From Halobacteriovoraceae bacterium (lineage in GTDB: Bacteria > Bdellovibrionota > Bacteriovoracia > Bacteriovoracales > Bacteriovoracaceae), in NCBI GenBank assembly GCA_963719505.1, contig CAVRCF010000005.1, positions 352,001 through 416,000 on the forward strand: a DNA stretch of 64,000 bases. Direction: 5' to 3'. Positions 10,787-62,246 of the stretch are shown in pieces. How positions within the stretch are numbered: position 1 is the stretch's first letter; the number at the start of each line of letters is the position of its first letter. The notes under the pieces were generated by a model, which had not been told where the DNA came from, ran no database searches, and saw only the letters and a program-made list of their open reading frames with translations. A program made the position numbers and the translations under genes.

Positions 10787-11812
10787 ATGTATTTTACACT
10801 CAAAAACTCAACTTTAAAAATTTTAAAGCTCTTTGGCCTCTTCCAGCTCTTTCGCATCAAGAACATAGATAAAATTCCTATCCTTTGCTATCACGGAGTC
10901 TCAATAAATGATGAACATGAGTTTATGCCATCAAATTATATGAGATTTGAGACGTTTAAAAGTAGAATTCTTTTTTTGAAGAGAATGGGCTACAGGATCA
11001 TCAGTCTGCAAGAATCTTTAGAGATGGTTAGAAACAAAAACATTGAAAAAAACTGTATCGTGATCACCATCGATGATGGTTTTACACCAATATTTGACGA
11101 ACTAGTCCCCTTTCTCATAGATCAAAATCTGCCCGCCACAATTTATGTCACATCTTATAAATCTAAATATGAAGTCCCTATTTTTCGCCTTGTTGCTCAA
11201 TACCTTTTTTGGAAATCTGAAAAAAATATTGAATTAGAAAAAATTGATATCGAAAAAGCTGATGGAACTAAGCTTGAGCTCAAAAAAATGCGCACTGAAG
11301 AAGAGCTTTGGGAATTTATAACACTTTGTGAACAGACATGTAAAAGAAAGGAGAGGTTTAGGATTCTTCATTCACTAGCTTCGGAATTCAATTTGGAACT
11401 AACGCCCTCTATTATCAAAGCACACTCAATTGCAAATAAAGAAACTCTCACTAAATTTGGCCAACATAAGAATATCAATCTGCAGCTTCATACACACTCC
11501 CACAAAACGAAGTTAACAGCTCTAGGATTTAAAAAAGATATTATTAAAAATATTGAGTATCTCGAGCAAACCGTATCACATCCACTCGTTCATTTTTGCT
11601 ACCCAAGTGGGCACTGGGAAGAGGAGATGATTCCGATCTTAAAAGAGTTAAACATCCAAAGTGCAACGACCTGTGACCTAGGGCTCATGGATAAACAAAC
11701 TGATCCCTATAAGATTCCAAGAATTATCGATTCTGAGTCAATCAGTGAAATTGTCTTTTACGCCGAAATCGTAGGCCTCTCGTCATGGCTTAGAAATCTC
11801 CTCAATAAATGA
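10787..11812 (+). CDS. Polysaccharide deacetylase (CE4/NodB; IcaB/PgaB-like)
   Basis: ILCYHG, motif 1 TIDDG, metal-binding HTHSH, FCYPSG, IPRI. TTG at 10784 is an alternative start. Confidence 0.88.
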   Translation: MYFTLKNSTLKILKLFGLFQLFRIKNIDKIPILCYHGVSINDEHEFMPSNYMRFETFKSRILFLKRMGYRIISLQESLEMVRNKNIEKNCIVITIDDGFTPIFDELVPFLIDQNLPATIYVTSYKSKYEVPIFRLVAQYLFWKSEKNIELEKIDIEKADGTKLELKKMRTEEELWEFITLCEQTCKRKERFRILHSLASEFNLELTPSIIKAHSIANKETLTKFGQHKNINLQLHTHSHKTKLTALGFKKDIIKNIEYLEQTVSHPLVHFCYPSGHWEEEMIPILKELNIQSATTCDLGLMDKQTDPYKIPRIIDSESISEIVFYAEIVGLSSWLRNLLNK

Positions 11813-14800
11813 ATCTTGCACTTTTGCACTCTCAACAAAGGTAGCATGAGGGACATCAAAGGTGACTATTTTAATGTCTCCTTTGATAACTCCACCCCAA
11901 CCAAGTAAGGAATCCGAATAAAATCCCTTCTGAGTAAGAGGGGCCCTGAAAAGAACCATATCACCGTCGTAAGAAGATACGACGTGCTCCTTCATACACT
12001 TAAAATTATTTTTTTCTATTTTATAATATCTTAAATGATGAGGAATTATTCTTCCTGTCTTTTCATACTTTGCTATTTCTTTCTCTTTAAAAAAGGAGCT
12101 AATTCTATAGAAGAGTGAGTCCTTTAACCGTTCAAAACGTTTTTTTAATGTGATATAAGGTTTGAATTGAAGATTAGGTCCTGAAGTATCAAACATTATG
12201 AGCTTGCCCACCTCAACATCAATCTTTTTTAATTCGATTGCCACTTCTAAAGCTAATAATCCTCCCATAGAGCCGCCAGCGAGGAATACTTTCTTACTAT
12301 CGACGGTATTAACAATTTCTTTTGCATAATGCACGGCCATCTCTTTAATCGACTGATGGAGCTCACTGATTCCGTCCACACCACTGGCCTGAAGACCATA
12401 AACAGCTTTATTCGCCGCGACCTTTAAGCCCAGGTCTCGATAATTTAAAACATTTCCACCGACTCCATGAAACATAAATAAAGGGATACCATCATTACCA
12501 TCTCTTATCTTCACAACACAAGTCGATGCCCTTGAGTCGCCTAAATTTTTATCTGAAGTTGATGAAATCTTTTTTGCTTTTAATTTGAGATCAATGAGTT
12601 CAGAGATTAAAAAGATTGTTGGATAGTCAAAAAGCATACTCAATTCAAGTTGGATGTCGAACTTATTTTCGATTTTAGAAAATAAAGTGACTGATAAAAT
12701 TGAATGTCCGCCAATATCAAAAAAGTTATCTTGTATTCCAAAATCATTTTTTGCCAAAACCGACACCCACAAATCTTTTACCGCTCTTTCGGTCTCAGTC
12801 TTGGGCTCCACCCTCTCAAGCTTTGTAGAGGGTTTTTGGCCACCTGACAAAAGACTTAAAGGACTTGGAAGATTCTTTTTATCTATTTTGTCATTTAGAG
12901 TTTTAGGAAAAGAATCAAGCTTAATAAAGTTTGATGGAATCATATAAACGGGTAGACTCACACTGAGAAACTTTCTAAGTTCTAGATGATTAAAATCACC
13001 AATAATATAAGCCACTAGTCGAACATCACCTGGAATATCCTCTCGAGTGATTACAACACAAGAGGTGACACCTGGACTTTTAGCAATTTGAGCCTCAATC
13101 TCTCCAAGCTCAATTCGATAGCCTCTTACCTTCACTTGACCGTCGTTTCTTCCTAGACATTCAAGATCACCATTATAATTCCACCTGGCAAGATCTCCAG
13201 TATTATAAACCCTTGTCTTAAGTCTCTCGTTAAAAGAGAATACTTTTTGGGTTAAATCATCTCTTTTTCTATAGCCTTTAGCTAAGCCTTCACCGGCAAT
13301 AAAGAGTTCACCAGTTGCTCCTATTGGAACACTCTGACCTCGCTCATCTAGTATATATACCTGGGTATTGTCTATAGGTTTACCGATGAGCATTTTCTTG
13401 TCATCTTTCTTTATCTTTTTACATGTCGACCAGACAGTCGTCTCAGTTGGACCATACATATTCCAGACATCTTGTGTTTGCTCTAAAAGAGTTTCGGCTA
13501 AATCCAAAGGAAAGGGCTCTCCCCCACAAAGAACTTTAAATCCTTCTTTTGCTTGCCAACCTGAGGCTAAAAGAAGTCTCCAAGTAGAAGGAGTGGCCTG
13601 CATCGCCGTAATTTCTTTATCGGATATAATTGTCTTTAAGGAATCTCCGTTAATGGTTTGTGCTTTGCTAGCGATAAAAACAGAACCTCCCACCAAAAGA
13701 GGAGCGTATAATTCAAGTACCGCAATATCAAAACTTAAAGTCGTCACGGCCAATAGACTTGTTGAACTCTTTAATCCAGGAGTTTTCACCATTGATTGAA
13801 GGAAGTTTGAAACACTCCTGTGAGTGAGTTCAACTCCTTTTGGAAGGCCTGTTGAACCTGAGGTATAAATGACATACATCAGGGCATCTAAATCGACTTT
13901 CGGAAACTCACATCTGTTAAGAGATTCATTCTCAGTTAACTCACTAAGGTCAACAACAGTGAGGCTTTTTGAGAACCTCTCTTTATATTTGCTACTAGCA
14001 ATAATAATATTTAAATCAGATGTCTCAACCATATAGTCAATACGATCCTTTGGAAAGGATGGCTCCAGAGGAATATAACCGGCACCCGCTTTCATAATAC
14101 CTAAAAGCGCGATCAGCATTTGACTCTCTCTATCAACACAAAGACCAACGAGATCCCCTGGCTTAACCCCCCTATTGATTAAGGATGAAGCATAACGATC
14201 GGATAGATTTAAAACCTCTGAGTAAGTAAAACTTTTCTTTTCACAATAGATTGCTGTATTATCTGGAAATTGAAGACAGCTTTTTTCAAATAATTCACTA
14301 ACAGTAAGTGATTCATTTTCGCACACGGTAGCATTCCAGCTGTTTTCTAACATAAATTTTTGATCATCAGTTACAACATCAATTACTCCTAGAGGGCTAT
14401 CCAATAAATTGAGAATTGATTTAACCAGTAGCTCGAAACTCTCCTTGATTCTCGTAATAGTGATCTCACTAAAAAGATCAACTCTATAAACAAAAGCCCC
14501 TTCTATTTTATCTTGGCTGGCTTTAACCCAAAGATCTAAATCAGTATGGGTAGTATTTGTTTTTCTTTTGACATGGGAAATTGGATTTGAATCAAAGGTA
14601 GAACTTCGATTTGAAACTTCCTGAAAGGTAAAGAAAGACTGAAAGACAGGGGATCTAGATGTATCTTGACCAATTCCTAAAAGTTTAACAACGTCTTCAA
14701 AGATCACCTGCTCATTATCAAAACCTTGAAAACAGGCGCTTGCCACATTTTTAATAAAATTTTGTAGCTCCATCTCTTTTGAAAGCTCAGTGCGAATAGC

Positions 14801-17362
14801 TATAGAGTTGACAAAATAACCGACGGTGTTTTCAAATTTTTCACTATGTCTATTTCTAACGGGTAAGCCTACGACTAAATCATCTTGGCGGGCATATTTA
14901 GACAGAACAATTTTAAAAAGAGATAAAAGGGTATTAAATGTTGAAACTCCAAGCCTCTCACTAACGGTGTTTAGGTTTTTTACGTCCTGAGCTGAAAACT
15001 CAATAAAAACTGAACTGGCAAGATTTGAAGCTTTACGAGGTCTTGGAAAATCAATCGGAAGATCTAGTATTGGAAGCTTTCCCGATAGTTTTTCATGCCA
15101 ATAGTTTAAACTCTTTGCATAGCTTCTAGACTCTAAAAGGTTATTTGAATAATCAATATAGTCTGAGTATGTGAATTTGTCTAAGCTTGTTTTAAAAGAG
15201 GTTCCATCTAAAAGGCTTCGATAGTTACTATCTAGCTCGTTAATAAGGAGATCAAAGCACCAACCATCCCAGACTAAGTGATGAGGCATAAAGAACAATA
15301 TAGTTTCATTGAATTCATTAATAAAAATCTTTGTCTTAAAAAGATAACTCTCCAAGAGATCTAATTTTTGAGTAAACTGTAGTTCAATATATGATTGAAT
15401 ATCTTTGTTTGATAATTTCTCAACAGATATATCTTTATCAAAGGGATATGGTCCTCTAAATTCATAGTCTCCCCCGCCATTAATAAAAAGCTTTGATAAA
15501 AGAAGAGGATGACAATTTAAAAATTGATGAACAGAGAGTTTAAGCTTCTCATGATCAATACCTTCCCCAAGGTTGAGACCAGTTGGCAAATTATTAACGG
15601 CCACACTACTTTTTAAAGAAAGAAATAGAGAGCGAAGTTGACTTTTACTAAGGGAATGAGAAGATTTTTTTGTGTGAACGACCTCTATCTGTTTCACACC
15701 TGATTCACCTTTCTGTCCATTTAATAATGTTTCTAGCTCTAAAATAGTTGGGTACCTAAAAATATCATTTAAGCCTATCTGGTATCCTGCCTCTTTGAGA
15801 CGAGAAACCATCTTTATCGCCAAAAGAGAGTGTCCACCAAGGGCGAAAAAGTTCATATCCTTTGGTATATTATCAATCAGAAGAACTTCGGACCAAAGTT
15901 TTGCAACATCAAAATCTTCAGTTTTCTCAATATTTAAAGTCTCTTTCTTTGGAACAGAAATATTTTTCTCTTTAGCTCTATCGGGAGTCTTCGGAGTCTT
16001 TAGTGTCATTGGCTCTATAGCTGGAAGATCTAGTACTATAGAAGATAATGGTGTAGACGGATTTTTTAGAATAATGGAGACAAGGCCCTCAAATGATCTC
16101 ATCCATTTATGAATCGTCTCCTGCGAAAAAAGGTTTGTATTAAACTGCATCTCAAAAATGAGATCATCTCCGAAAGTAACAATATTTAAAAACAGTTCAA
16201 AGTTCTCTGCCATTCTTGGAACGGTTCTAAAATGCCCCTGAAGACCATCAAAAGCCAAGCCTTGATTCTTTTTTTGAATATCCAGATTAAAGATATTATT
16301 AATAAGGGGTACCTGACCAGCAACTCTTGGAACATCTATAACCTGAAGAAGCTCTCCAAAAGTAACCTGCTGAAAGTCGAGACCATCCAGAAGAGTTTTT
16401 TTGACTTGATTGAGTAAATCGATAAAATTTAGCTTCTTGTCAAAGACTATTCTCATAGGAATAAGATTTACGTAGTGACCAACAAGATTATGATGACCAG
16501 AGACTGACTGCTCTGCAGCCGGAATACCAATAATCAAATCATCAGCTTTAGAAATTTTGTGAAGCAAAGTCCCGTACACTGCAAGAAGAGAACTATAGAA
16601 ACTAAAGCCATTTTTTTGAGCAAGTCGCCTAAGGTCTGCGGAGAACTCCGTTGAAAAATCAAAATCAAAACGCTTGGATTCAAACGTTCTCATATTTGGT
16701 CTTGAGTACTCAGTTGGAATAGAAAATTGATGATTAAAACCATCAAGTTTTTCAATCCAATACTTTTTTATTGAATCAAAGTCTCTTATTTGCATGTAGT
16801 TATAAAATTGGATTGGAGAAGTCTCTAACTGAACAACACCTGTCTTTCTTTGAGAATAAAGTCGACTAAGATCCTGAATAACGACTTCTAAAGACCAACC
16901 ATCACAAATAATATGGTGAACAGTAAAAAATAGAATCGATTTATCCTGTCCTTTTAATAAGGAGGACCTTACAAGAGGACCGGCTGTTAAATCAAAAGAA
17001 TTTGTCACCTCTTTATGAGCAAATTCATCAACGCTATAGAGATCTAGATTAAAAATATTAAGAGATGGAGTTAACCCATCGATAAAGAGCATTTTTTCAC
17101 CATCTTTTGAGATGATACAATTTAAAATAGTATAGCGCAGGAAGAGATCCCTAAAAGCTAATTTTAATGCCCTTATATCTAAGACACCCTCAAGCTCAAC
17201 TTTAACCGTAAGATTGTAAGCCGTATCTGCTGTTTCGGTGAAATTGATTGTCGACCACATCTCTTTTTGTGCGGCTGTTGTATCAACAGACTTTAATACT
17301 CTTTTCAACTTGGAAGCCGCAACAAGATTCTTTAGGAATATATCTTTATCTTTTGTGCTCAA
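11783..17362 (-). CDS. NRPS, domain order C-T-C-A(Gly)-T-TE
   Basis: C1 HHIICDG; T1 FFALGGHSL; C2 HHLVWDG; A core motifs YTSGSTGLPKG, YGPTE, YNTGD, GYRIELGEIE; T2 FFDIGGHSI; TE GGSMGG. TTG start 1 nt after the PKS stop, with an AAGGA RBS. Confidence 0.93.
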   Translation of the reverse strand: MSTKDKDIFLKNLVAASKLKRVLKSVDTTAAQKEMWSTINFTETADTAYNLTVKVELEGVLDIRALKLAFRDLFLRYTILNCIISKDGEKMLFIDGLTPSLNIFNLDLYSVDEFAHKEVTNSFDLTAGPLVRSSLLKGQDKSILFFTVHHIICDGWSLEVVIQDLSRLYSQRKTGVVQLETSPIQFYNYMQIRDFDSIKKYWIEKLDGFNHQFSIPTEYSRPNMRTFESKRFDFDFSTEFSADLRRLAQKNGFSFYSSLLAVYGTLLHKISKADDLIIGIPAAEQSVSGHHNLVGHYVNLIPMRIVFDKKLNFIDLLNQVKKTLLDGLDFQQVTFGELLQVIDVPRVAGQVPLINNIFNLDIQKKNQGLAFDGLQGHFRTVPRMAENFELFLNIVTFGDDLIFEMQFNTNLFSQETIHKWMRSFEGLVSIILKNPSTPLSSIVLDLPAIEPMTLKTPKTPDRAKEKNISVPKKETLNIEKTEDFDVAKLWSEVLLIDNIPKDMNFFALGGHSLLAIKMVSRLKEAGYQIGLNDIFRYPTILELETLLNGQKGESGVKQIEVVHTKKSSHSLSKSQLRSLFLSLKSSVAVNNLPTGLNLGEGIDHEKLKLSVHQFLNCHPLLLSKLFINGGGDYEFRGPYPFDKDISVEKLSNKDIQSYIELQFTQKLDLLESYLFKTKIFINEFNETILFFMPHHLVWDGWCFDLLINELDSNYRSLLDGTSFKTSLDKFTYSDYIDYSNNLLESRSYAKSLNYWHEKLSGKLPILDLPIDFPRPRKASNLASSVFIEFSAQDVKNLNTVSERLGVSTFNTLLSLFKIVLSKYARQDDLVVGLPVRNRHSEKFENTVGYFVNSIAIRTELSKEMELQNFIKNVASACFQGFDNEQVIFEDVVKLLGIGQDTSRSPVFQSFFTFQEVSNRSSTFDSNPISHVKRKTNTTHTDLDLWVKASQDKIEGAFVYRVDLFSEITITRIKESFELLVKSILNLLDSPLGVIDVVTDDQKFMLENSWNATVCENESLTVSELFEKSCLQFPDNTAIYCEKKSFTYSEVLNLSDRYASSLINRGVKPGDLVGLCVDRESQMLIALLGIMKAGAGYIPLEPSFPKDRIDYMVETSDLNIIIASSKYKERFSKSLTVVDLSELTENESLNRCEFPKVDLDALMYVIYTSGSTGLPKGVELTHRSVSNFLQSMVKTPGLKSSTSLLAVTTLSFDIAVLELYAPLLVGGSVFIASKAQTINGDSLKTIISDKEITAMQATPSTWRLLLASGWQAKEGFKVLCGGEPFPLDLAETLLEQTQDVWNMYGPTETTVWSTCKKIKKDDKKMLIGKPIDNTQVYILDERGQSVPIGATGELFIAGEGLAKGYRKRDDLTQKVFSFNERLKTRVYNTGDLARWNYNGDLECLGRNDGQVKVRGYRIELGEIEAQIAKSPGVTSCVVITREDIPGDVRLVAYIIGDFNHLELRKFLSVSLPVYMIPSNFIKLDSFPKTLNDKIDKKNLPSPLSLLSGGQKPSTKLERVEPKTETERAVKDLWVSVLAKNDFGIQDNFFDIGGHSILSVTLFSKIENKFDIQLELSMLFDYPTIFLISELIDLKLKAKKISSTSDKNLGDSRASTCVVKIRDGNDGIPLFMFHGVGGNVLNYRDLGLKVAANKAVYGLQASGVDGISELHQSIKEMAVHYAKEIVNTVDSKKVFLAGGSMGGLLALEVAIELKKIDVEVGKLIMFDTSGPNLQFKPYITLKKRFERLKDSLFYRISSFFKEKEIAKYEKTGRIIPHHLRYYKIEKNNFKCMKEHVVSSYDGDMVLFRAPLTQKGFYSDSLLGWGGVIKGDIKIVTFDVPHATFVESAKVQDSFIEEISKP

Positions 17363-17363
17363 A

Positions 17364-20300
17364 TCAGTTTCCTTTATCTACTTTCTCAAAATTTCCATTT
17401 TTATTTTTTACAAACCACGCTATATCCCCCTTATCGTCTTGCATGAGAAGTGCTCCCTCCACCGGAGGCTCACCAGAGGACTTTGACTCTAAGGTAGGAA
17501 TAAGTCCTTTTGATTGAAGAAGTAAAAGCTGTTCTTGAACCGTATCCATAACGATCCTTAAGTCTTCTTTTGTGTGTGCAATATTAATATACCAAGGAAA
17601 GCCGTCGTAGACATGAATACCACGTTCTTTAAGCGCCACGAAAAGAAGATCAGAAAAAGGAACATCGACTAGCCACTTGGGCTTCATGAGAGCACCAAAA
17701 TTATCTATAGTAAGAGGAATATTTGAAAGCTTACAAAAAAGATTTAACTTTGCAGCAAACTCATCAGCACTTCCATTAATCCTATCGAGGAGCTCTTTCC
17801 CTCCCTCTTTAATGACTTCTAATGCGCCTTTAGCTGCAGCTAGAGCTAAAGGATGCCGGACGAAGGTTCCCGCAAAATAAGTGACACCAACTGTTGGACC
17901 TGAATCATCTCCATACTGCCAATGTCCACCATCAAGGGCGTCCATGTATTTTGCAGAACCTGCGACTACACCTATAGGCATTCCACCACCGACGACTTTT
18001 CCATAGGCAGCCAAGTCAGCTTTTATTCCAAAGTACTCCTGAGCTCCACCTGTAGCGATTCTAAAGCCCGTTATAACTTCATCAAAAATAAAACAAACAT
18101 CATTGGCACTCGTTATATCTCTAAGCTTTTGAAGAAACTCTTTTGGATGATAGTCACTTCTTCTACTTTGAACAGGCTCAACCATAATTGCCGCGACCTC
18201 ATGAATATGTTTTTTAACGTATTCAAAAGACTCTTCAGTACCATAATCAAGGACAATCATATTCTTGACTGACTCACTATTAATTCCTGGAGCAGCGGGA
18301 ACAGGTCTTCCTCCTCCTACTCCTCTGACGATAACCTCATCGTTAATTCCATGGTAAGAACCATTAAAACTTATAATTTTATCTTTACCACTAATCGTTC
18401 TCGCAATTCTCATACAACCTAGAACGGCTTCTGATCCGGTATTACAAAACCCTGCTCTTTCAAGACCTGTTAGCTCACAAACAAGTCTACTAACATCTTC
18501 CGTTAGTGGATGCTGAGGCCCAATCTCTACCCCATTGTCGATCTGCTCTTTTACATATTTAGTAATATGGGGATGCCCATTTCCAAAAAAGTTTGAACCA
18601 AATCCACACGTAATATCAATATACTCATTACCGTCTATATCCCACAGGTGATTCGCTTTAGACTTTTTCACAACGATAGGATAAGTGACCTCTTTTGTAA
18701 GAGGTTTAAAACCTGAAACAACTCTAGGATCAGCATGCATTTTTCTATTTCTTTGAGTGAATTCTTTAGAAGAAGATGTCTTTTTTAGGTATTTTGAAAA
18801 AAGATCATCAATAAAATCTTTTTGTTCGCTTGTCAGTGTATTTTTATTCTTCGTCGTAATTCTCGCAATAGCACCATAAGCCGTATCAGCGTTATCGACT
18901 CCTACCTTTTTTGACTTTGGACTCTCGTTTACTGAAGTGCTTGGAGCTGGAGGAGTCTTTGCTCTTTCTTCACTTTGAGGTTTCACTGGCCCAATTAAGG
19001 TTGCCTGAGCACTCCCCCCTAAAAGAAGTAATTGATTATTCATAATCTCAAGTTGCTTATTAATCAGCCCTTGAACACTTCCAGAAATTTCTGTATTTAC
19101 CATACTTATCGATTGCATTGCTTCCGGTTGTGTTAATGTTTGACTACCTTGCTCATAACTTAAAACGGGAGGACTAGGTTCATTTTTAAAGTAAGTGCTA
19201 TCAACTCTAGAGACGAGGGCCTGTGTTAAAACATCAAGAGAAGAGACGTCATCCGCAAGTTGCCTAAAAGAAATCTCAACATTGAATTCCTTTTTCAAAT
19301 TTAATGCAATTTGCGTTAAGAAAAGTGAATCCATTCCCATTTCCATGAAAGTCATCTCGCTATCAAAGTCGGTTAAAATCAATCCAGATGCCTCATCAAA
19401 GATTTGAACGATCTTCTCTTTGATTTGTTTGTCCTTTGCCATTTTCATTCCTTCAGTATTTTGTTTCAATATTTCGTTATGATTATTAGGTAATTGAGTA
19501 GTCTGAGAAGTAGGTTCTCTCCATTCAAGCCAATAGGACTTCTTATCGAATGGATAAGTAGGAGTTTGCGGAAATCTCTTTTTTTGATCCATGAAAAAGA
19601 GCTTTTTTGATTCTTCTTTACCGTGGCACCAAAGATAGCCCAACGCCTTGTGAAGAGAAAACTGCTCATTTTCCAAATCATCTTTCAATGAATTTATAGC
19701 AGCAAACTTCTTGAGCCCTAAATTTACTGCTGTCTTTCTGGCCAAAGTTGTAAGAGTCGCTCTTGGACCAACTTCCAAAAAGATAGCATCTTTAAAATTT
19801 TCAATAATAGACTCAATAGTTGGAGCAAATTTTACTGGAGCTTTCATATGTTCAACCCAGTATTCAGGGTCAGTAAATCTTTTGGACTCTATACTTGTTG
19901 TCACAGTAGAGACGAAGGTCATTTTCGGTTCATGAAATGTAACAGAGCGAGCTACTTCTCTAAATGAATTAAATATAGGCAGCATCATATCTGAATGAAA
20001 AGCATGAGAGGTATGGAGTAATTTATTTTTAATATTTGATTCCGTTAGCTTTTCACTTAGCTTCTCTATACTAGCAGATGGTCCCGAGACTACTGTTAGT
20101 TTCGGAGCATTGATAGCCGCTAATTGAATATCGGTTGGGAGAAGATCTTTATAGGAGTCAAAATCAGCTCCCACAGAGAGCATTGCCCCTCTTTCTAAAC
20201 TCTCCATAAGACTGGATCTCGTTGAAATAAGCTTTAATCCATCTTCTAAAGAAAAGACTCCACTAATCACAGCCGCAACAAACTCCCCCACACTGTGACC

Positions 20301-22379
20301 AATTAAAACGTCAGGAACAACCCCTAAACTATCTAGAAATTTGGTTAGAGAGTATTCAATAACAAAAAGTGCTGGTTGAGTGTAATAAGTATTTTTTAAA
20401 GCATCAAAAGCTTCTTCTTCACTCATATTGTCAACGAAAATAATCTCTCGAAGGTCTCTTTTGAGATAGGTTTTTAAAATGTCACAACATTGATTGAAGT
20501 GTTCGGCAAAGATCGCATTGCTCATAAGATCTTTACCCATCCTAAGGTATTGACTACCTTGACCTGGATACATAAAAACAATTTTTTTACTTCCTAAAGT
20601 TCCATTAACAGCTTCAAATCGATCGTTATGATAAACGAGTGCCCGATTGTATTTGTATTTAAATCTATTAAAGGAAATCTCTGAACTGATAGCTCCCCAA
20701 TCGTTTGGTGACTTTGACTTTAAAAACTCTTTGATATTTGTTTCATAGATATTGAGTGCATCTTTAGATTTGGCTGAAAAATGAATAAAAAGGTGTTCAT
20801 GCCTTTTCTTATCCTGGTCTTTTGTCTCGTCATTATAGTTTTCGATAATGACATGCGCATTGGTTCCGCCGACACCAAAAGATGAAATACCAATATTAAA
20901 AATCTCTTTTTCTATCTCTACTGTTTTTTCATTTATTGCAAAGCTTGTCTTTTCTAATCCTAAATGAGGATTTAAAGTTTCAAAGTTTGCCATTTTTGGG
21001 ATTTTACGATGAAGATTAATACAGATGGACTTGATGAGACCAACCACACCAGCTGCCGAATTCATATGAGCAGTATTTGACTTTACAGATCCAAGATAAA
21101 CTTCTTGATGCGCTTTTAATTTTTTTCCATAGGAGCTATTAAGTCCTTTAACCTCGATGGGATCACCAACAGGAGTTGCTGTCCCATGGGCTTCAATATA
21201 AACAAGATTATCAAGCTCAATATTTGCATCTTTAATAGCGCGATCGATCGCTATACTTTGCCCTTTTGCACTAGGGGCCATAAAACTCATTTTGTCTGAG
21301 CCATCATTATTTGTTCCAACACCTTTTATAACAGATAGAACTGTATCTCCGTCAGCTAACGCTTTTGAGAGATCCTTGAGGACAACAATTCCTGCACCAT
21401 CAGTAAAAAGGGTTCCCGTAGACTGATGGTCAAAAGGAGAGCACTTTCCATCTTTTGTTTGAATTCCATCTGGTTGATAGAGGTGTCCTTTATTGGGGGT
21501 TCCAGAGATGGCCAATCCCCCAGCTAGTGCGGCGTCACACTCTCCTCTTCTAATGGAATGAACGGCTTCAATAACAGTTATAAGTGAAGTTGAACAAGCG
21601 GTTTGAATGGTAAGAGCAGGGCCTTTGAGATTTAGTTTATAAGCCACTCGAGCAGCAAGATAGTCCTTTTCAAGCCCAAGCATTGTGTTGAACTCTCCTA
21701 GCCGATTCACTTCTTGTGGGTATTGAGAAACTAAACTTGCATATGTATTGTTTGCGGCTCCTAAAAAAATACCAACTTTATCACTCTTGTTGACCAAACC
21801 AGACAACTCCATTGCCTCATGAGATAGCTCTAGCGCTTTTCTATGTTGAGGATCCATAAGTTTGGCCTCAGCAGGAGTTATATTAAAGAGTGAACAGTCG
21901 AAGGTATCGAAATCTGGACATAGGCCACTGGCAAAAACATAGTCGGGATTGTCTTTTAAATCATTATGAACACTTGGATGTGTCTGATCTTTTTGAAATT
22001 TTTCAACAAGGTTTTTTTGCTCGCAAATATTTTCCCATAACTCTAGAACATCGTGAGATTTTGGAAAACGACCAGTCATCGCGATAATCGCAATGTCTTT
22101 AGATTGGTTGCCAGATTCGTCATTATTCGCATCTTTAATATCATCACTAGTTTCAGTATCAAAAAGAAAATGACTAAGAGAATGAATGGTTCTATTTTCC
22201 AGAAGATCCACGATCGTGAGATCTGGAAAGTCATTTTTTAAACCTGATAAAATCTTTATTGCCAAAAGTGAATTTCCACCCAAGTCAAAAAAATCATCAT
22301 CATTTGAAAAATCATCGAAATGCAAAACTGAAACCCAAAGGGACTTCAACCTACTTGTAAATATCGACTTATCTGTCAT
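17364..22379 (-). CDS. Type I PKS, domain order T-KS-AT-ACP-class III aminotransferase
   Basis: N-terminal carrier FFDLGGNSLL; KS TACSTS/EAHGT/SNTAH; AT GHSVG + HAFH; ACP MGMDSL; PLP aminotransferase NTGSEA, FDEVITGFR, YGKVVGGG. Confidence 0.93.
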   Translation of the reverse strand: MTDKSIFTSRLKSLWVSVLHFDDFSNDDDFFDLGGNSLLAIKILSGLKNDFPDLTIVDLLENRTIHSLSHFLFDTETSDDIKDANNDESGNQSKDIAIIAMTGRFPKSHDVLELWENICEQKNLVEKFQKDQTHPSVHNDLKDNPDYVFASGLCPDFDTFDCSLFNITPAEAKLMDPQHRKALELSHEAMELSGLVNKSDKVGIFLGAANNTYASLVSQYPQEVNRLGEFNTMLGLEKDYLAARVAYKLNLKGPALTIQTACSTSLITVIEAVHSIRRGECDAALAGGLAISGTPNKGHLYQPDGIQTKDGKCSPFDHQSTGTLFTDGAGIVVLKDLSKALADGDTVLSVIKGVGTNNDGSDKMSFMAPSAKGQSIAIDRAIKDANIELDNLVYIEAHGTATPVGDPIEVKGLNSSYGKKLKAHQEVYLGSVKSNTAHMNSAAGVVGLIKSICINLHRKIPKMANFETLNPHLGLEKTSFAINEKTVEIEKEIFNIGISSFGVGGTNAHVIIENYNDETKDQDKKRHEHLFIHFSAKSKDALNIYETNIKEFLKSKSPNDWGAISSEISFNRFKYKYNRALVYHNDRFEAVNGTLGSKKIVFMYPGQGSQYLRMGKDLMSNAIFAEHFNQCCDILKTYLKRDLREIIFVDNMSEEEAFDALKNTYYTQPALFVIEYSLTKFLDSLGVVPDVLIGHSVGEFVAAVISGVFSLEDGLKLISTRSSLMESLERGAMLSVGADFDSYKDLLPTDIQLAAINAPKLTVVSGPSASIEKLSEKLTESNIKNKLLHTSHAFHSDMMLPIFNSFREVARSVTFHEPKMTFVSTVTTSIESKRFTDPEYWVEHMKAPVKFAPTIESIIENFKDAIFLEVGPRATLTTLARKTAVNLGLKKFAAINSLKDDLENEQFSLHKALGYLWCHGKEESKKLFFMDQKKRFPQTPTYPFDKKSYWLEWREPTSQTTQLPNNHNEILKQNTEGMKMAKDKQIKEKIVQIFDEASGLILTDFDSEMTFMEMGMDSLFLTQIALNLKKEFNVEISFRQLADDVSSLDVLTQALVSRVDSTYFKNEPSPPVLSYEQGSQTLTQPEAMQSISMVNTEISGSVQGLINKQLEIMNNQLLLLGGSAQATLIGPVKPQSEERAKTPPAPSTSVNESPKSKKVGVDNADTAYGAIARITTKNKNTLTSEQKDFIDDLFSKYLKKTSSSKEFTQRNRKMHADPRVVSGFKPLTKEVTYPIVVKKSKANHLWDIDGNEYIDITCGFGSNFFGNGHPHITKYVKEQIDNGVEIGPQHPLTEDVSRLVCELTGLERAGFCNTGSEAVLGCMRIARTISGKDKIISFNGSYHGINDEVIVRGVGGGRPVPAAPGINSESVKNMIVLDYGTEESFEYVKKHIHEVAAIMVEPVQSRRSDYHPKEFLQKLRDITSANDVCFIFDEVITGFRIATGGAQEYFGIKADLAAYGKVVGGGMPIGVVAGSAKYMDALDGGHWQYGDDSGPTVGVTYFAGTFVRHPLALAAAKGALEVIKEGGKELLDRINGSADEFAAKLNLFCKLSNIPLTIDNFGALMKPKWLVDVPFSDLLFVALKERGIHVYDGFPWYINIAHTKEDLRIVMDTVQEQLLLLQSKGLIPTLESKSSGEPPVEGALLMQDDKGDIAWFVKNKNGNFEKVDKGN

Positions 22380-22408
22380 ATAAAACCTTAATAAATATCT
22401 TTTAATAC

Positions 22409-22435
22409 TTATCGGCTTTACTCGGGTAATCTTTA
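22409..22435 (-). promoter_or_regulatory. Sigma28 (FliA)-type promoter upstream of the PKS-NRPS genes
   Basis: Minus strand reads TAAA-gattacccgagtaaa (15 nt)-GCCGATAA, an exact match to the enteric FliA consensus, ~30 nt before the PKS ATG. Confidence 0.8.
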
Positions 22436-22438
22436 CGT

Positions 22439-23104
22439 TTATTTTCTTAAAATTAGCGCCGTAACTACTTGATTTTTAATTACTTTATAATGGCCAGTAT
22501 AGAGAGAATTGAAGCCTTTGAGTTCGTCCAATTCACTATGCAGTTCAACGTCAAACGAATCTTTTCGAATGGATCGTACGCTGGCGTGTTCAAAACCAAA
22601 AAATTTATCACACAGAGGATTAATAAGTTTGTACAAAGATTCTTTGGCAGAAAAGATAATTGTAGCGATCAGATCATCCGATTGACCATCAAACAGTTTT
22701 AGATCTGCATCTGTTGCAAGCTGCCTAGAGAGAGAATCAAATTTCTCTTTGGTCATTATAAGCTCACAGTCTATTCCAATGGAGGTCACTAAATCGGAGG
22801 GCGCAACACAGGCGATGGCCAAAGTCCTAGAGTGAGTTATGCTACCAACAACACCTTTAGGCCACAGTGGTTTTCTATCCTGACCAAATCCAACCAAGCC
22901 CTCAAGGCCCAAGGACTCCATCGCTTTTTTTGCGCAAGCTCTTGCAGCGACAAATTCACTTTGCCTGCCTTTAACAGCTTTTTTTAAAAGAGGATCGAGA
23001 AGATGAACATTTTCTTTGAAAATTGTATCTTCTAAAGGCAGCTCAATCCCAATTGAGACTGGACTATTGTCATCTTCACTGAAGAGGGACAAGACTTTAA
23101 ACAT
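22439..23104 (-). CDS. 4'-phosphopantetheinyl transferase (EntD/Sfp-type)
   Basis: RQSEFVAAR, PLWPKGVVGSITHS, IGIDCE, FSAKESLYK. Confidence 0.92.
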   Translation of the reverse strand: MFKVLSLFSEDDNSPVSIGIELPLEDTIFKENVHLLDPLLKKAVKGRQSEFVAARACAKKAMESLGLEGLVGFGQDRKPLWPKGVVGSITHSRTLAIACVAPSDLVTSIGIDCELIMTKEKFDSLSRQLATDADLKLFDGQSDDLIATIIFSAKESLYKLINPLCDKFFGFEHASVRSIRKDSFDVELHSELDELKGFNSLYTGHYKVIKNQVVTALILRK

Positions 23105-24097
23105 TTAGAGAAGTAAAATGATGGCGATAGAGCTCAGAACACCAAGAACCTGTGCCGTTCTTTGAAGAACAGTATCCCATACAGTCCTATGATCAGCGTA
23201 AAGCATGATGACATCATCTTTCTCTATCGCTGGAATTTCATCCATCTGGGTTATATCAAAACGAATTTTTTTAAGTCCCGAAGTTGTTGATCTAACAATA
23301 TAACATTCATCATATTTTATGTTTGATATTACTCCACCAGATTTATCTATATAGTAAAAAAGATCTTTATCTCTTTTAAATGCGACTTTTCCTGGTGCAC
23401 CGACACCTGACAGAACCGCAACCATGGGAACAATTTCATTATAAGCATCATCATTAATCAGATTGACAAAAATCGTATCAGCACCGGTCCATGCAAATGA
23501 CTTACTATATTCAATATTTTCATAAAACTGATTAAGACTAACAGTATAGGATTCTTTTTGTTGCTTTATGGATGCAGATAGAAAATCTTTATTCAAATCC
23601 CCTTTTAAGCCTCCGGCCTTATCTATGACTTTATCAATACTCTCTTCTCGAGTCACAAGGTAGCGACCTGGTTTATTCACAAATCCCCTAACTTCTACAT
23701 AGTAATCTTTTCTGATGAGACCTAGTCTTACTTGATTAGCCCCCTCTTGAAAAAATTGTTTATAGGCATTTTTAACGCGCTTTCTTAATTGAACAATATT
23801 GAGTCCACTGGTATTTATACGGACATTATAAGGTAAACGAAGAATTCCATCAAAGCTCACTCTATAATTCCCCTTCAATTTTTCATCGGAAGGATGGGAT
23901 AGGGAAAGTAAAAATCCAGGAGCGACATCGTACCTCATCGATCTAAACTGAGGGATATCTCCAACTTTTTTATAATTGAGGTCATTTTCGCTTCCATCAC
24001 CTACTTTTAAATCATTTTGTCTTTTGTAGTCTATATCTGAGCTACTTGCACAAGAGTATAAAACCAATATCATCAACGCTGAAAAGATTACTTTCAT
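23105..24097 (-). CDS. wza: Polysaccharide export lipoprotein (Wza/OPX; Poly_export + SLBB)
   Basis: Lipobox LYSC; DGILRLPY; SLBB V.G.V.KPG.Y...IDKAGG (twice); C-terminal amphipathic/hydrophobic helix. Confidence 0.8.
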   Translation of the reverse strand: MKVIFSALMILVLYSCASSSDIDYKRQNDLKVGDGSENDLNYKKVGDIPQFRSMRYDVAPGFLLSLSHPSDEKLKGNYRVSFDGILRLPYNVRINTSGLNIVQLRKRVKNAYKQFFQEGANQVRLGLIRKDYYVEVRGFVNKPGRYLVTREESIDKVIDKAGGLKGDLNKDFLSASIKQQKESYTVSLNQFYENIEYSKSFAWTGADTIFVNLINDDAYNEIVPMVAVLSGVGAPGKVAFKRDKDLFYYIDKSGGVISNIKYDECYIVRSTTSGLKKIRFDITQMDEIPAIEKDDVIMLYADHRTVWDTVLQRTAQVLGVLSSIAIILLL

Positions 24098-24129: not shown

Positions 24130-24157
24130 ATTCTATCGTGTTATAGTAAAATATCAA
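24130..24157 (-). promoter_or_regulatory. Possible sigma70-type promoter for wza-PPTase
   Basis: Minus strand TTGATA-16 nt-TAGAAT in the divergent intergenic region. The region is AT-rich, so a chance match is possible. Confidence 0.35.
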
Positions 24158-38367: not shown

Positions 38368-38543
38368 AGGGCTCCCATTATTCATAATGTGTAACTTTCG
38401 TTCGTTAAATTTGTGATTACCGATATAATGCGTCAGGTATGTATAATAAGATACCCTTAACACCTGATCCGGAAAAAATTACACCCCTGGATGCGGGGTG
38501 CGTTATCTTTTAGCTTCTTTTATAATGGACCGAAAGGTTCATT

Positions 38544-40943
38544 ATGAAAAACTTAATTTTGTTGATACTCCTCATCGTTATTACTAGTGCCTGCGAGCAA
38601 GTCACAGAAGAAACTTCAATAGGTGCAAACCCTAGTCAAGATCAAGCTAATGATCAGAACCAGGATCCAAATACTGACCCAGACCCAGAACCTGACCCTG
38701 ACCCTGACCCCGTACCAGAAACAAGTCTTTATAAGGCCATGGGTGTTGGTGGTGGTGGGGCCATGAGTGGCTTTGCCATCAATCCCTATTCCAAATTAAG
38801 ACTTATCGGTACCGATATGGGGACTCTTTTTAGAAGCGTGGACGATGGATTGTCTTGGCAGCCAATAAACCACAACGAAGCCGTATTTAATTCACATCTG
38901 CCCCATGCGGTAAGCCCAGGATTTAGCTCCGATGGAAACACAGTTTTTCATGCCTCTAGAGGTCTAAATCCAAAAAGAAGTAAGGATAAAGCCCAGACAT
39001 TTGAGAGCATTAATATCCCATTGGGAGATGAGAGAATCATATACTGGCAAAATGATAGTTTTAATGAAAATAGAATTCTGTGTGCAACAACAAATTCTCT
39101 TTATATCTCAAATGACAAAGGCGACTCTTGGATTAAAGCCCCTTCAGTTCAAGGTGAATCTGTAGGGACTTTTATGAGTCACCTACAAACAGACACTCAT
39201 ATCTATCATGGAACTAAAGATGGAATATGGAAATCAATCGATAATGGCCAAACCTTTTCTAAAGTTTATACACCGAGTGGGTTTTCTCTTCGTTCGTTAA
39301 CCGGAGGCGAAGATCTGTCAGGCACAACCATAGCATTTTTAGACGATGACGGGGCAAGTGCTTGTTCATGGGCAGAGCCCTACAGGGATGCCTGGGGTGA
39401 TCAGTCTATAGAAGATACTTATTCAAACTGCGGGTATGTCTGGATTGGCGATTCGCAAATGAACTTCTCAAAGAACTCGCAGGAAGCTGGAAACCATTTA
39501 AAAATGGCCGAAAATGATAGTGACACCATCTACGTGACCGGCGGAAAAGAGTGGATCAAACAATATGGAACCCAAGTCCGGGTCACTCACGACAAGGGAG
39601 TCAACTGGACGTTGAGGCTTAATCAATACGACTGGGATACAGGAGGGGCTTATCTTCCTTGGCCTTCAAACCTACTTGAGTATTCCGCCGTCGCCCTTGA
39701 TATTGGTTGGTATGATGATGGTTATGAGAGCTTTGAAATTAATAAAAGAGACTCAAATCAAGTGGGTGGCTCTGGCTTCTTTTTTCTTCATACCAGCTAC
39801 GATGCAGCAGCAACTTGGAAGGCCCCTTTTACCCAATATAAAGATGTCGGTGCAAAAACTGCTGGCAAAAAATGGCAAACCCGTGGCATTGAAGTTATCT
39901 CAATTTATAGAATGAAAACCCATCCTTCTAATAATAACCTCATCTATGCAGCGACAGCTGACATAGGGGGAATGATATCTGAAGATAAGGGAGAGAGTTT
40001 TAGAATCGCGAAGGTTCAGTATAATTCTAATTACGATTATGCATTTGATAGTCACGATGACCAAGTTGTATATGCTGCATCAGGAAACTCTCACGACTGG
40101 CCCGAAGGCTGGCATGCCGATCCCATCAAGAGTGCTGGAGGAATCTACCGCTCTAATGACAGAGGATCGAATTGGACACGTCTTACCCCAACAGGTGATA
40201 TGAACAGACAGTTTCTTTCAGTGGGATACGATACCATTAATAATTTTATTTACGGAGGCTCTCATCAGACAGGAATAGTGAGAAGTACCGACAACGGATC
40301 CACTTGGGCCTATTTTAATAACGGTTTACCTGCAGGTGATAAGATTATTCCCCAAATTGAAGTAGATCCTTCAAATGGAAACGTTTATGCCCTTGTCACG
40401 GGAAATGGAAACTTTTCAAATCAAGCATCAACAGGAATTTATTTTTTAGATGTGGCCAATAATGCAAATTCTTGGTCTCTTCTTCGTGGAACTGTAAACT
40501 ACCCACCACAAGCTGATCCAGGCTACAAGGTTTGGTACTACCCCACTTCTTTCGCTGTAGACTTTAAAAGTGGTGGTCAAAACCTTTGGTTAGTCGACTA
40601 TGAAAATAATAGAAATTGGCTAATGACGGGGATATGGAAATCCACAGACAGAGGAGTGAGCTGGGATAGAGTTAAGCAGATGACTCATCCAACGACTGTG
40701 ATTGTTGATCCAACGGATTCAGATAAAGTGTATGTTGCCGGTCAGCACACACTTGATGGTTCTTGGGGCAACGGAGGTCATTACAGAACTGAAGATGGTG
40801 GAGTGACTTGGATTAAAAACGAAACCGTCACGCTCCAACAAAATGGAAGAAGTGTTATGTTGGATCCAACCGATCCTTCTAAAATATATCTTGGTTTTTT
40901 TGGCGGCGGTATCTTGTATGGACCTATTGATCCTGAAAACTAA
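38544..40943 (+). CDS. Lipoprotein with Asp-box (BNR) beta-propellers, GH74/xyloglucanase-like
   Basis: Lipobox ITSAC; PD linker; many S.D.G..W boxes; GVGGGG..GTDMG and ATADIGG resemble the two GH74 catalytic-Asp motifs. Confidence 0.7.
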   Translation: MKNLILLILLIVITSACEQVTEETSIGANPSQDQANDQNQDPNTDPDPEPDPDPDPVPETSLYKAMGVGGGGAMSGFAINPYSKLRLIGTDMGTLFRSVDDGLSWQPINHNEAVFNSHLPHAVSPGFSSDGNTVFHASRGLNPKRSKDKAQTFESINIPLGDERIIYWQNDSFNENRILCATTNSLYISNDKGDSWIKAPSVQGESVGTFMSHLQTDTHIYHGTKDGIWKSIDNGQTFSKVYTPSGFSLRSLTGGEDLSGTTIAFLDDDGASACSWAEPYRDAWGDQSIEDTYSNCGYVWIGDSQMNFSKNSQEAGNHLKMAENDSDTIYVTGGKEWIKQYGTQVRVTHDKGVNWTLRLNQYDWDTGGAYLPWPSNLLEYSAVALDIGWYDDGYESFEINKRDSNQVGGSGFFFLHTSYDAAATWKAPFTQYKDVGAKTAGKKWQTRGIEVISIYRMKTHPSNNNLIYAATADIGGMISEDKGESFRIAKVQYNSNYDYAFDSHDDQVVYAASGNSHDWPEGWHADPIKSAGGIYRSNDRGSNWTRLTPTGDMNRQFLSVGYDTINNFIYGGSHQTGIVRSTDNGSTWAYFNNGLPAGDKIIPQIEVDPSNGNVYALVTGNGNFSNQASTGIYFLDVANNANSWSLLRGTVNYPPQADPGYKVWYYPTSFAVDFKSGGQNLWLVDYENNRNWLMTGIWKSTDRGVSWDRVKQMTHPTTVIVDPTDSDKVYVAGQHTLDGSWGNGGHYRTEDGGVTWIKNETVTLQQNGRSVMLDPTDPSKIYLGFFGGGILYGPIDPEN
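38676..38711 (+). repeat. Six imperfect GACCCN hexamers encoding a DP/EP linker
   Basis: gaccca gaccca gaacct gaccct gaccct gacccc. Confidence 0.85.
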
Positions 40944-60932: not shown

Positions 60933-60999
60933 AGTCACCTCTTAGTTATTCTAAATAGTTACCATACTAGGCAAGAAATTCATACCTAATAGATCATCT

Positions 61000-61027
61000 T
61001 AAAGCTAAAGCGTTATTTTGCCGAAAA
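61000..61027 (+). promoter_or_regulatory. Possible sigma28-type promoter for the GYF-domain gene
   Basis: TAAAG-15 nt-GCCGAAAA, ~31 nt before ATG 61059. Confidence 0.5.
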
Positions 61028-61058
61028 CTTAATTAAGGTAAAACGACACGGAGACGTT

Positions 61059-62246
61059 ATGAGTAAGAAAAACCCACTTTTGAACATTGAACCACTGAGC
61101 CCAGAGTTTATTGCTGAGCATAAAGTTGAGTTATTCGATACTTGGATGATTAAGGACGACAAAGGAAACTCTTTTGGACCTTTTCAAACAGACACTCTTC
61201 GAGAAACAGCTGCTGTTGATCAGGACTTCTTTGAATCCGTGACAGCTTTTAACTACGCTACGGAAAAAGAGAAACCTTTTTATCAAAATACAAAATTTCA
61301 AAGAAGAAAACCCAAGCTAGTCTCACTCCAAGGAGTTGAGAGCACAGATGAGTTCTATCTTCTTATAAAAGGCGTTAAAAAAGGTCCCTATAGTTTAGCT
61401 GAAGTTAAAGAGATGGCCCAAAAAAGAGAAATTGCCCTCAATATCATGGCTTCTATGGATAAAGGTCAATCGTGGATAAAACTATTTGAGCACCATGAGT
61501 TTGATAGAAGACTTTTAAAAAACAAAGAAGAACTTCCCTTTTCGCCAAATGAAAGTGAACTCTCAAAAGTTCCTCAAAATAAAGTGAATAAATCCAACGA
61601 AGCTGATGAAGCTCTTGTAGGACTGGCTTTTATAGGCCGAGGAAACGATAGAGGTCAAAAAATTAAGCCCATATCGAGCACTTCGACAAACGAAGCCCCA
61701 ACAAGCACTCAACATTCAGTTTCTTTTACCTTCTCTAAAAGAGCAAAAATTGGATCGGCGATTGCTGCAATGCTGGTCATGGTTATGGTTGGCTTTAATA
61801 CTATGAATTCAACATTTGATAAAACACCTGAAACATATTCAAAAGCCCAAGCTCCAAAGGTCAATAACAGCGTTGTCACGAAAGTAGAGAAAGTGCAGCC
61901 CGTTCAAAGAAAACCTGCCCAGGCCATTCAAGCAAAAAAATACCAACCAATTAAGAAGAAACGAATCTATAAACCCACTCGTAATACTTCTCCACCAAGA
62001 CCAGTGGAAGTTTACAGAGAAGTTCATACTGACGATGAGCGTTACGACACAGTCGATCTAGATGATCCAAGACAAAAAGAAGACCTAACGAGAAGCCTCG
62101 CTGGAGACTTTGGAAATGATCAACTTTCTGAAGAGGAACTTGAGTTTATTGAAAGAGCAGAAAATGGTGAATTAAGCGAAAAAGAGATGGATAGCTATAA
62201 AACTTATCTCGATCAAAAAAGAGGCGAATTCGACGAATTTGATTAA
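61059..62246 (+). CDS. Single-pass membrane protein with tandem GYF_2 (DUF4339)-like domains
   Basis: WMI....FGPF and FYL...KKGPYSL.E......W motifs; one TM; low-complexity and acidic C-terminus. Confidence 0.6.
   Translation: MSKKNPLLNIEPLSPEFIAEHKVELFDTWMIKDDKGNSFGPFQTDTLRETAAVDQDFFESVTAFNYATEKEKPFYQNTKFQRRKPKLVSLQGVESTDEFYLLIKGVKKGPYSLAEVKEMAQKREIALNIMASMDKGQSWIKLFEHHEFDRRLLKNKEELPFSPNESELSKVPQNKVNKSNEADEALVGLAFIGRGNDRGQKIKPISSTSTNEAPTSTQHSVSFTFSKRAKIGSAIAAMLVMVMVGFNTMNSTFDKTPETYSKAQAPKVNNSVVTKVEKVQPVQRKPAQAIQAKKYQPIKKKRIYKPTRNTSPPRPVEVYREVHTDDERYDTVDLDDPRQKEDLTRSLAGDFGNDQLSEEELEFIERAENGELSEKEMDSYKTYLDQKRGEFDEFD

Follow-up and report, generated by a model that had tools for sequence, protein, structure and literature searches.

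A predicted sigma-28 (FliA-type) promoter in front of a PKS-NRPS gene pair in a putative predator of the Bacteriovoracaceae

The window analysed here, meaning the whole stretch of 64,000 nucleotides, holds a pair of large synthetase genes on its minus strand. The first, a PKS gene (17364..22379), encodes a protein of 1671 aa with the domain order ACP-KS-AT-ACP-class III aminotransferase, and the second, an NRPS gene (11783..17362), encodes a protein of 1859 aa with the order C-PCP-C-A-PCP-TE. The NRPS gene starts 2 nt past the PKS stop, hence the two are probably carried on one transcript. Upstream of this pair, also on the minus strand, lie a 4'-phosphopantetheinyl transferase (PPTase) gene of the Sfp/EntD type (22439..23104; 4PPT_N and ACPS domains) and a gene of 330 aa (23105..24097), and the four genes follow each other in the order 330-aa gene, PPTase, PKS, NRPS, with gaps of 0, 59 and 1 nt. 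The product of the 330-aa gene shows a weak likeness to polysaccharide export proteins (Wza/EpsE). An earlier note on this DNA had called the gene wza, a name which goes too far, as all of its export-protein matches are weak and fall under the curated cut-offs (EpsE scores 33.9 bits where 262 are required, and Poly_export 21 where 28 are required).

A polysaccharide locus of the Wzx/Wzy type (window positions 6959-38463) surrounds the PKS-NRPS pair. It includes an initiating sugar-phosphate transferase, several GT2 and GT4 glycosyltransferases, a Wzx-like flippase, a Wzy-like polymerase and a chain-length-determinant-like protein, and also a polysaccharide deacetylase and two TolC-like proteins. 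Downstream of the NRPS gene, a 984-aa ORF (7805-10759, minus strand) matched nothing in Pfam or NCBIfam at the cut-offs applied. The named records closest to the PKS N-terminus were Bacteriovorax, Bacteriovoracaceae and Halobacteriovoraceae genome bins (45-49% identity), and the host is likely a member of the Bacteriovoracaceae, a putative predator of the Bacteriovorax/Halobacteriovorax family. Relatives of the ACP-KS N-terminus with 36-44% identity were also observed in distant phyla, among them Verrucomicrobiota, Bacteroidota, Gammaproteobacteria and Acidobacteriota.

Hybrid assembly lines of the mycosubtilin/iturin type rely on a PKS module with a terminal aminotransferase to form a beta-amino acyl unit, and the order found here, ACP-KS-AT-ACP-aminotransferase followed by the C and A domains of the NRPS, fits the same logic. 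The present line differs however, in that it has a single adenylation domain (the only one in the window), lacks the N-terminal A domain of most of its relatives and stands in a Wzx/Wzy setting. In most relatives the PKS carries ~490-625 additional N-terminal residues (loci L026-L028 and L070-L095), which are absent from the genome of the window (G000) and from a genome of the same genus (G002). In one relative, G012, the extra N-terminus is a domain of the adenylation type which shares 33% identity with the A domain of the window NRPS. A close stand-alone copy of this domain was not found in G000, where the next-best tblastn matches showed 20-24% identity. An assignment of the extra N-terminal part as a fatty-acyl-AMP ligase was dropped, as the comparison supports an adenylation-type domain only.

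The 59-bp gap between the PPTase and PKS ORFs (22380..22438) is for the most part taken up by a predicted sigma-28-type promoter (22409..22435, minus strand), made up of a -35 element TAAA (22435-22432), a 15-nt spacer and a -10 element GCCGATAA (22416-22409). The minus strand from 22435 to 22409 reads TAAAGATTACCCGAGTAAAGCCGATAA. In E. coli and Salmonella, flagellar promoters of class 3 have the consensus TAAA-N15-GCCGATAA (references 24-26 of PMC3627812), which the PKS site matches letter for letter, spacing included, and the same type of motif is also present before flagellin genes in this genome. This is the single match to TAAA-N15-GCCGATAA in the 64-kb window (0.01 expected; one of 100 dinucleotide shuffles matched), and the octamer GCCGATAA alone occurs three times against 1.08 expected. 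A G follows directly after the octamer at 22408, and the extended -10 element typical of the genome is CCGATAAG. The octamer ends 29-30 nt 5' of the PKS start codon (ATG, 22379), and a likely Shine-Dalgarno sequence, AAGG (22386..22389, minus strand), is located 6 nt 5' of the same ATG. At sigma-28 promoters transcription starts a few nucleotides downstream of the -10 element, and this was used to place the predicted transcription start at 22400..22404 (minus strand), ~5-9 nt past the -10 element. All sequence properties of a sigma-28 promoter are present at the PKS site, and the description in the earlier note, of an exact consensus TAAA-N15-GCCGATAA in the 59-bp gap between PPTase and PKS, is correct in every detail.

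The genome of the window (3.69 Mb, 5 contigs, 36.8% G+C) contains two copies of the exact 12-base consensus, against ~0.8 expected by a rough estimate from base composition, and the exact 12-base string alone carries no genome-wide significance. Such an expectation is what would be seen if the PKS site were a chance or decayed match without promoter activity, with a regulon that may be silent through a broken fliA, an explanation we regard as very unlikely. Both exact copies are intergenic, have a start codon 19-30 nt downstream and belong to an enriched motif family, hence the PKS site appears non-random. Its intergenic position, its right orientation and spacing and the genome-specific G after its octamer argue against a chance match in the same way.

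The enrichment of the motif family was clear with simple patterns, using a crude set of 3512 ORFs as gene calls, which left 10.5% of the genome intergenic. TAAA-N15-NCCGATAN had 35 matches in the genome, 24 of them intergenic, and intergenic matches peaked at spacings of 15 (24/35) and 16 (14/23), with 0-8 at each of the remaining spacings between 10 and 21. The strict pattern TAAR-N16-CCGATAAG occurred 19 times, against 1-6 times at spacings of 12-15 and 17-20. Starting from 23 seed sites, all from this genome, an iterated weight matrix converged on yT-TAA(A/G)-N15-rCCGATAAG and detected 137 sites of at least 15 bits across the genome, of which 108 were intergenic. When the intergenic segments alone were scanned, 100 sites reached at least 15 bits, compared with 1-4 in five shuffles of those segments. 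Furthermore, 128 of the 154 intergenic sites of at least 13 bits sit no more than 100 nt upstream of a same-strand ORF start. The PKS site scores 19.2 bits and ranks 41 overall and 35th of the intergenic sites, a rank which is slightly circular because the PKS site is among the training sites of the matrix. For any gene of G000, the base rate of an upstream site is 10.4% at 8 bits or more, 6.3% at 10 bits or more and 3.0% at 15 bits or more.

Among the best 40 target genes other than the PKS, 27 had no Pfam match (E 1e-4 or better), and the other 13 include M23 peptidase, amidase, Ser/Thr kinase, fn3, TPR and MgtE proteins. The candidate sigma-28 regulon of this genome would comprise roughly 100-150 promoters, mostly of non-flagellar and largely uncharacterised genes. 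The enteric FliA regulon is small and holds flagellar and chemotaxis genes only, whereas the regulon here is large, with the megasynthase operon as a predicted member. With more than 100 such promoters in the genome, the PKS site looks like an ordinary member of a large hunting-phase set of the kind described in Bdellovibrio. The earlier note had considered a flagellar-type promoter unusual for a secondary-metabolite cluster; this holds for such clusters generally, but not in this genome, where over 100 intergenic sites exist and their targets are mostly non-flagellar.

The distance between octamer and start codon was bimodal among 101 sites of at least 15 bits, with 31/101 at 5-9 nt and 49/101 at 15-39 nt, both figures resting on start codons from crude longest-ORF calls. 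The PKS site falls in the 15-39 nt class. In the 5-9 nt class the start codon would lie at the predicted transcription start, which suggests leaderless mRNAs.

Five of the eight Flagellin_N loci have a site within 300 nt upstream (17.5, 14.2, 13.8, 11.6 and 9.4 bits), the best of which is TAAAGTAATACCTGAGTAAGTCGATAT, with a spacer that is also similar to that of the PKS site. The top-scoring pair of sites is flanked by divergent genes for a CheY-like receiver and an Hpt/HATPase kinase. A site of 14.5 bits was detected 96 nt 5' of fliA itself, and the anti-sigma factor FlgM was also found (53 bits).

A single FliA-family gene is present in the genome, on contig C3 (303484-304274; locus L011, 1426-2216), where two stretches match the profile, at 113 and 117 bits, and jointly span positions 1-224. 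This gene is broken into three ORFs in the assembly and, relative to FliA of the same-genus genome G002, which is intact at 261 aa, shows at least three frame changes and an in-frame TAA; intact FliA was found in four relatives. The frame-broken fliA is a point in favour of the silent regulon raised above, and were the break real, and not an assembly error, the promoter would be left without its sigma factor in this strain. However, the fliA pieces are 74% identical to G002 FliA over 175 aa, a flhG-like gene just upstream (L011, 588-1074) likewise lies in several ORFs, one flagellin gene is also split, and genome completeness is estimated at 83.5% (marker genes) despite there being only 5 contigs. 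Taken together, these breaks fit better with assembly indel errors than with a recent pseudogene.

Matches to the first 500 aa of the PKS were found in 42 of 201 family genomes (E 1e-60 or better; G000 counted). The matrix, derived from G000 only, was then run over 300 nt 5' of the first synthetase gene at 27 orthologous loci. This count excludes loci truncated at the edge of a contig (G221, G159, G191), those with the match near a contig start (G182, G197, G003) and the eight weakest matches, with E above 1e-100 (G024, G120, G011, G073, G007, G076, G155, G174). Related genomes are non-independent samples, and conservation is given as plain counts. An upstream site of at least 10 bits was present in 10 of the 27 loci, and one of at least 15 bits in five, across genera g1, g10, g20, g56 and g4. 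The five strongest were G012 (20.0 bits), G099 (20.0), G199 (18.5), G002 (17.4) and G200 (16.2), and those between 10 and 13 bits were G105 (12.7), G157 (12.7), G211 (11.1), G202 (11.0) and G128 (10.0). The other 17 loci had no site of at least 10 bits, including all loci of g7, g71, g11, g81, g72 and g80 and some of g20 and g56.

The closest comparison is with G002, whose PKS ortholog has 57% protein identity. The motif is kept there as TAAA-N15-TCCGATAA / TAAA-N15-TCCGATAAGG, 21 nt 5' of the ATG, in a 134-bp gap which is elsewhere unalignable to the gap in the window. This gap follows directly after the 330-aa gene, with the PPTase gene absent between, and a gap 5' of the first synthetase gene is retained in relatives, at 119-220 bp. 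The strict motif had 16, 21, 6, 4 and 9 matches in the genomes of five relatives, against 0-2 for a reversed control pattern, and was less common in the tested g20 and g7 genomes, hence some of the ortholog misses may reflect motif drift. The predicted promoter is conserved in the cluster branch nearest the window, and not across the family. Conservation in orthologous loci had been put forward in the earlier note as a check on the promoter, and the outcome is divided: the same-genus ortholog and, overall, 10/27 loci in five genera carry the motif, whereas 17/27 loci, with six genera entirely without a site, do not. The loci without a site are compatible with a chance match, but the persistence of the motif in the same-genus ortholog, despite a diverged gap, and its presence in four more genera speak against it.

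In B. bacteriovorus, the motile attack phase has FliA as its master regulator, and a motif TTAAG-N16-CCGATA, attributed to FliA, occurs in 92 of 140 mapped attack-phase promoters (PMC3627812). A further study reports that, in E. coli, such promoters of Bdellovibrio were activated in a FliA-dependent manner and that fliA is essential in Bdellovibrio, and for TAD pilus genes in other predators of the group it infers FliA control from promoter sequences (PMC5430801). A global role of FliA in attack-phase regulation is established in Bdellovibrio and already proposed for related predators. The motif of the present genome is the same as that described for B. bacteriovorus HD100 (Karunker et al. 2013; Avidan et al. 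2017), with yT-TAA(A/G)-N15-rCCGATAAG here and TTAAG-N16-CCGATA there. Regulon size is also similar, with 92/140 mapped promoters there and 108 intergenic sites of at least 15 bits here, and in both organisms the regulon extends past flagellar genes to uncharacterised genes and cell-wall hydrolases. The two differ however, in that HD100 has mapped promoters, whereas the present genome, from another family (Bacteriovoracaceae), is known from sequence alone. The main-text passages of PMC3627812 and PMC5430801 make no mention of a PKS/NRPS target of FliA. Among the open-access papers listed, judged largely by title and abstract, we found no report of a FliA-driven PKS/NRPS in these predators, and a literature search linking Halobacteriovorax with sigma28 likewise found none.

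We consider it probable that the PKS site is a working sigma-28 (FliA-type) promoter, and that the PKS-NRPS operon thereby belongs to the motile-phase regulon of this putative predator of the Bacteriovoracaceae. FliA-bearing RNA polymerase would bind TAAA and GCCGATAA(G), and transcription would begin near window position 22402 (minus strand), giving a leader of ~23 nt with AAGG as ribosome-binding site and a transcript which spans the PKS gene and the abutting NRPS gene. With a promoter of the hunting-phase type, synthesis of the PKS-NRPS product would most likely coincide with FliA activity, in cells which are maturing or swimming freely. The genomes directly show the motif with its family of sites, the association with flagellin genes and a conservation which is partial; the FliA dependence, start position and expression timing of the PKS promoter we infer, and motile-phase expression of the PKS-NRPS genes would be an extrapolation from Bdellovibrio. 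The earlier note had likewise proposed a flagellar-type promoter, a proposal supported by the sequence properties of the site, the motif at flagellin genes, the match to the Bdellovibrio FliA motif and the conservation in the same-genus ortholog and four other genera.

The timing of expression depends on how far Bdellovibrio can stand for this family. FliA might recognise the motif here while its regulon is not bound to the hunting phase, in which case the promoter would say little on timing. The phase-specific data are from Bdellovibrio only (PMC3627812), the search for literature on Halobacteriovorax with sigma28 came back empty, and MCPsignal (PF00015) was not found in any frame of G000 (83.5% complete), hence motility control may differ. 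The parallel in regulon size and gene content with Bdellovibrio (27 of the best 40 targets without Pfam match) speaks against such an uncoupling, as does the apparent FliA regulation, from promoter sequence, of TAD pilus genes in other predators of the group (PMC5430801), and we give it only a very slim chance. Despite having no MCPsignal match, G000 does possess flagellins, FlgM and the CheY-like/CheA-like gene pair.

The relation of the PKS promoter to the genes upstream is less simple. A terminator-like element was sought between the PPTase stop and the promoter (22439-22379) and not found, hence read-through from the upstream genes is possible. The earlier note had the PKS-NRPS genes controlled separately from wza-PPTase, which is unsupported as stated, with no terminator-like site in between. 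A sigma-70-like site, TTGATA-16-TAGAAT (10/12; 24130..24157, minus strand), was detected by consensus scan 5' of the 330-aa gene and is a candidate promoter for the pair of 330-aa and PPTase genes, in a region where the sigma-70 scan was at chance level (10 sites against 9.3 expected). Upstream of the 330-aa gene, no sigma-28-type site of at least 10 bits was found on the minus strand, hence the upstream pair and the PKS unit appear to differ in their sigma-28 input.

These features allow for a genuine but secondary internal promoter, where the PKS-NRPS genes would be mainly co-transcribed with the Wza-like and PPTase genes from 24130-24157. The cluster would then have no separate control, and sigma-28 would merely boost expression in motile cells. 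The tight spacing of four same-strand genes, the missing terminator-like site and the 10/12 sigma-70-like site are all in keeping with this arrangement, and co-expression would be sensible in that the carrier domains of both PKS and NRPS need the PPTase. The chance-level result of the sigma-70 scan weakens it however, as do the difference in sigma-28 input between the two units and the gap before the first synthetase gene, which relatives retain and which keeps the motif in G002 even though the PPTase gene is absent there. A predicted RNA hairpin over the Shine-Dalgarno sequence and start codon, described below, would also disfavour translation of read-through transcripts. A secondary internal promoter is a credible but unlikely alternative to a promoter which acts as the main start of the PKS-NRPS transcript.

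The hairpin is predicted in the read-through transcript (22377..22424, minus strand; -13.8 kcal/mol, z -4.35), and none of 200 shuffles was equally stable. It pairs the GCC of the -10 region with the GG of the Shine-Dalgarno sequence and also takes in the start codon. Transcription from the sigma-28 promoter is predicted to start inside or beside the hairpin loop, hence a FliA-started transcript would lack the 5' arm of the hairpin. An analogous hairpin is predicted in G002, where UUCCGAU is paired with AUUGGAA (z -2.65), and such a leader hairpin was not seen in the g10 and g20 loci (z +0.7 to -1.6). The folding predictions suggest that, in this genus, only FliA-initiated transcripts are well translated, an idea which applies at the level of the genus only.

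If both elements were to act together, the PKS-NRPS genes of marine Bacteriovoracaceae could serve a hunting-phase function which is doubly gated, by the FliA promoter and by the leader hairpin. The hairpin would mask the ribosome-binding site and start codon in read-through RNA, whereas FliA-started RNA would escape, and translation would be set by the promoter used, with no need for a terminator. The product, for example a lipopeptide or a lipid-linked surface compound, would then be restricted to swimming cells. We put this double gating forward tentatively, as a rather doubtful extension of the probable FliA-type promoter.

Were the PKS-NRPS operon indeed under FliA-type control, this would offer a first way into the regulation of a natural-product pathway among obligate bacterial predators. 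Swimming, prey-seeking cells would make the product, and not cells growing within prey, which would tell the chemist when to harvest and hint at a function on the cell surface or during contact with prey. The role of FliA as a global attack-phase regulator would also be extended, by sequence evidence, to the Bacteriovorax/Halobacteriovorax family, and the ~100-150 candidate promoters of this genome could guide work on the unknown genes downstream of them.

Two further intergenic sigma-28-type sites were detected in the window, both on the plus strand. One (38508-38538, 13.7 bits) is located 6 nt 5' of an ORF (38544..40943) which encodes a 799-aa BNR/sortilin-repeat protein, and the other (60999-61029, 17.0 bits) is located 30 nt 5' of ORF 61059..62246.
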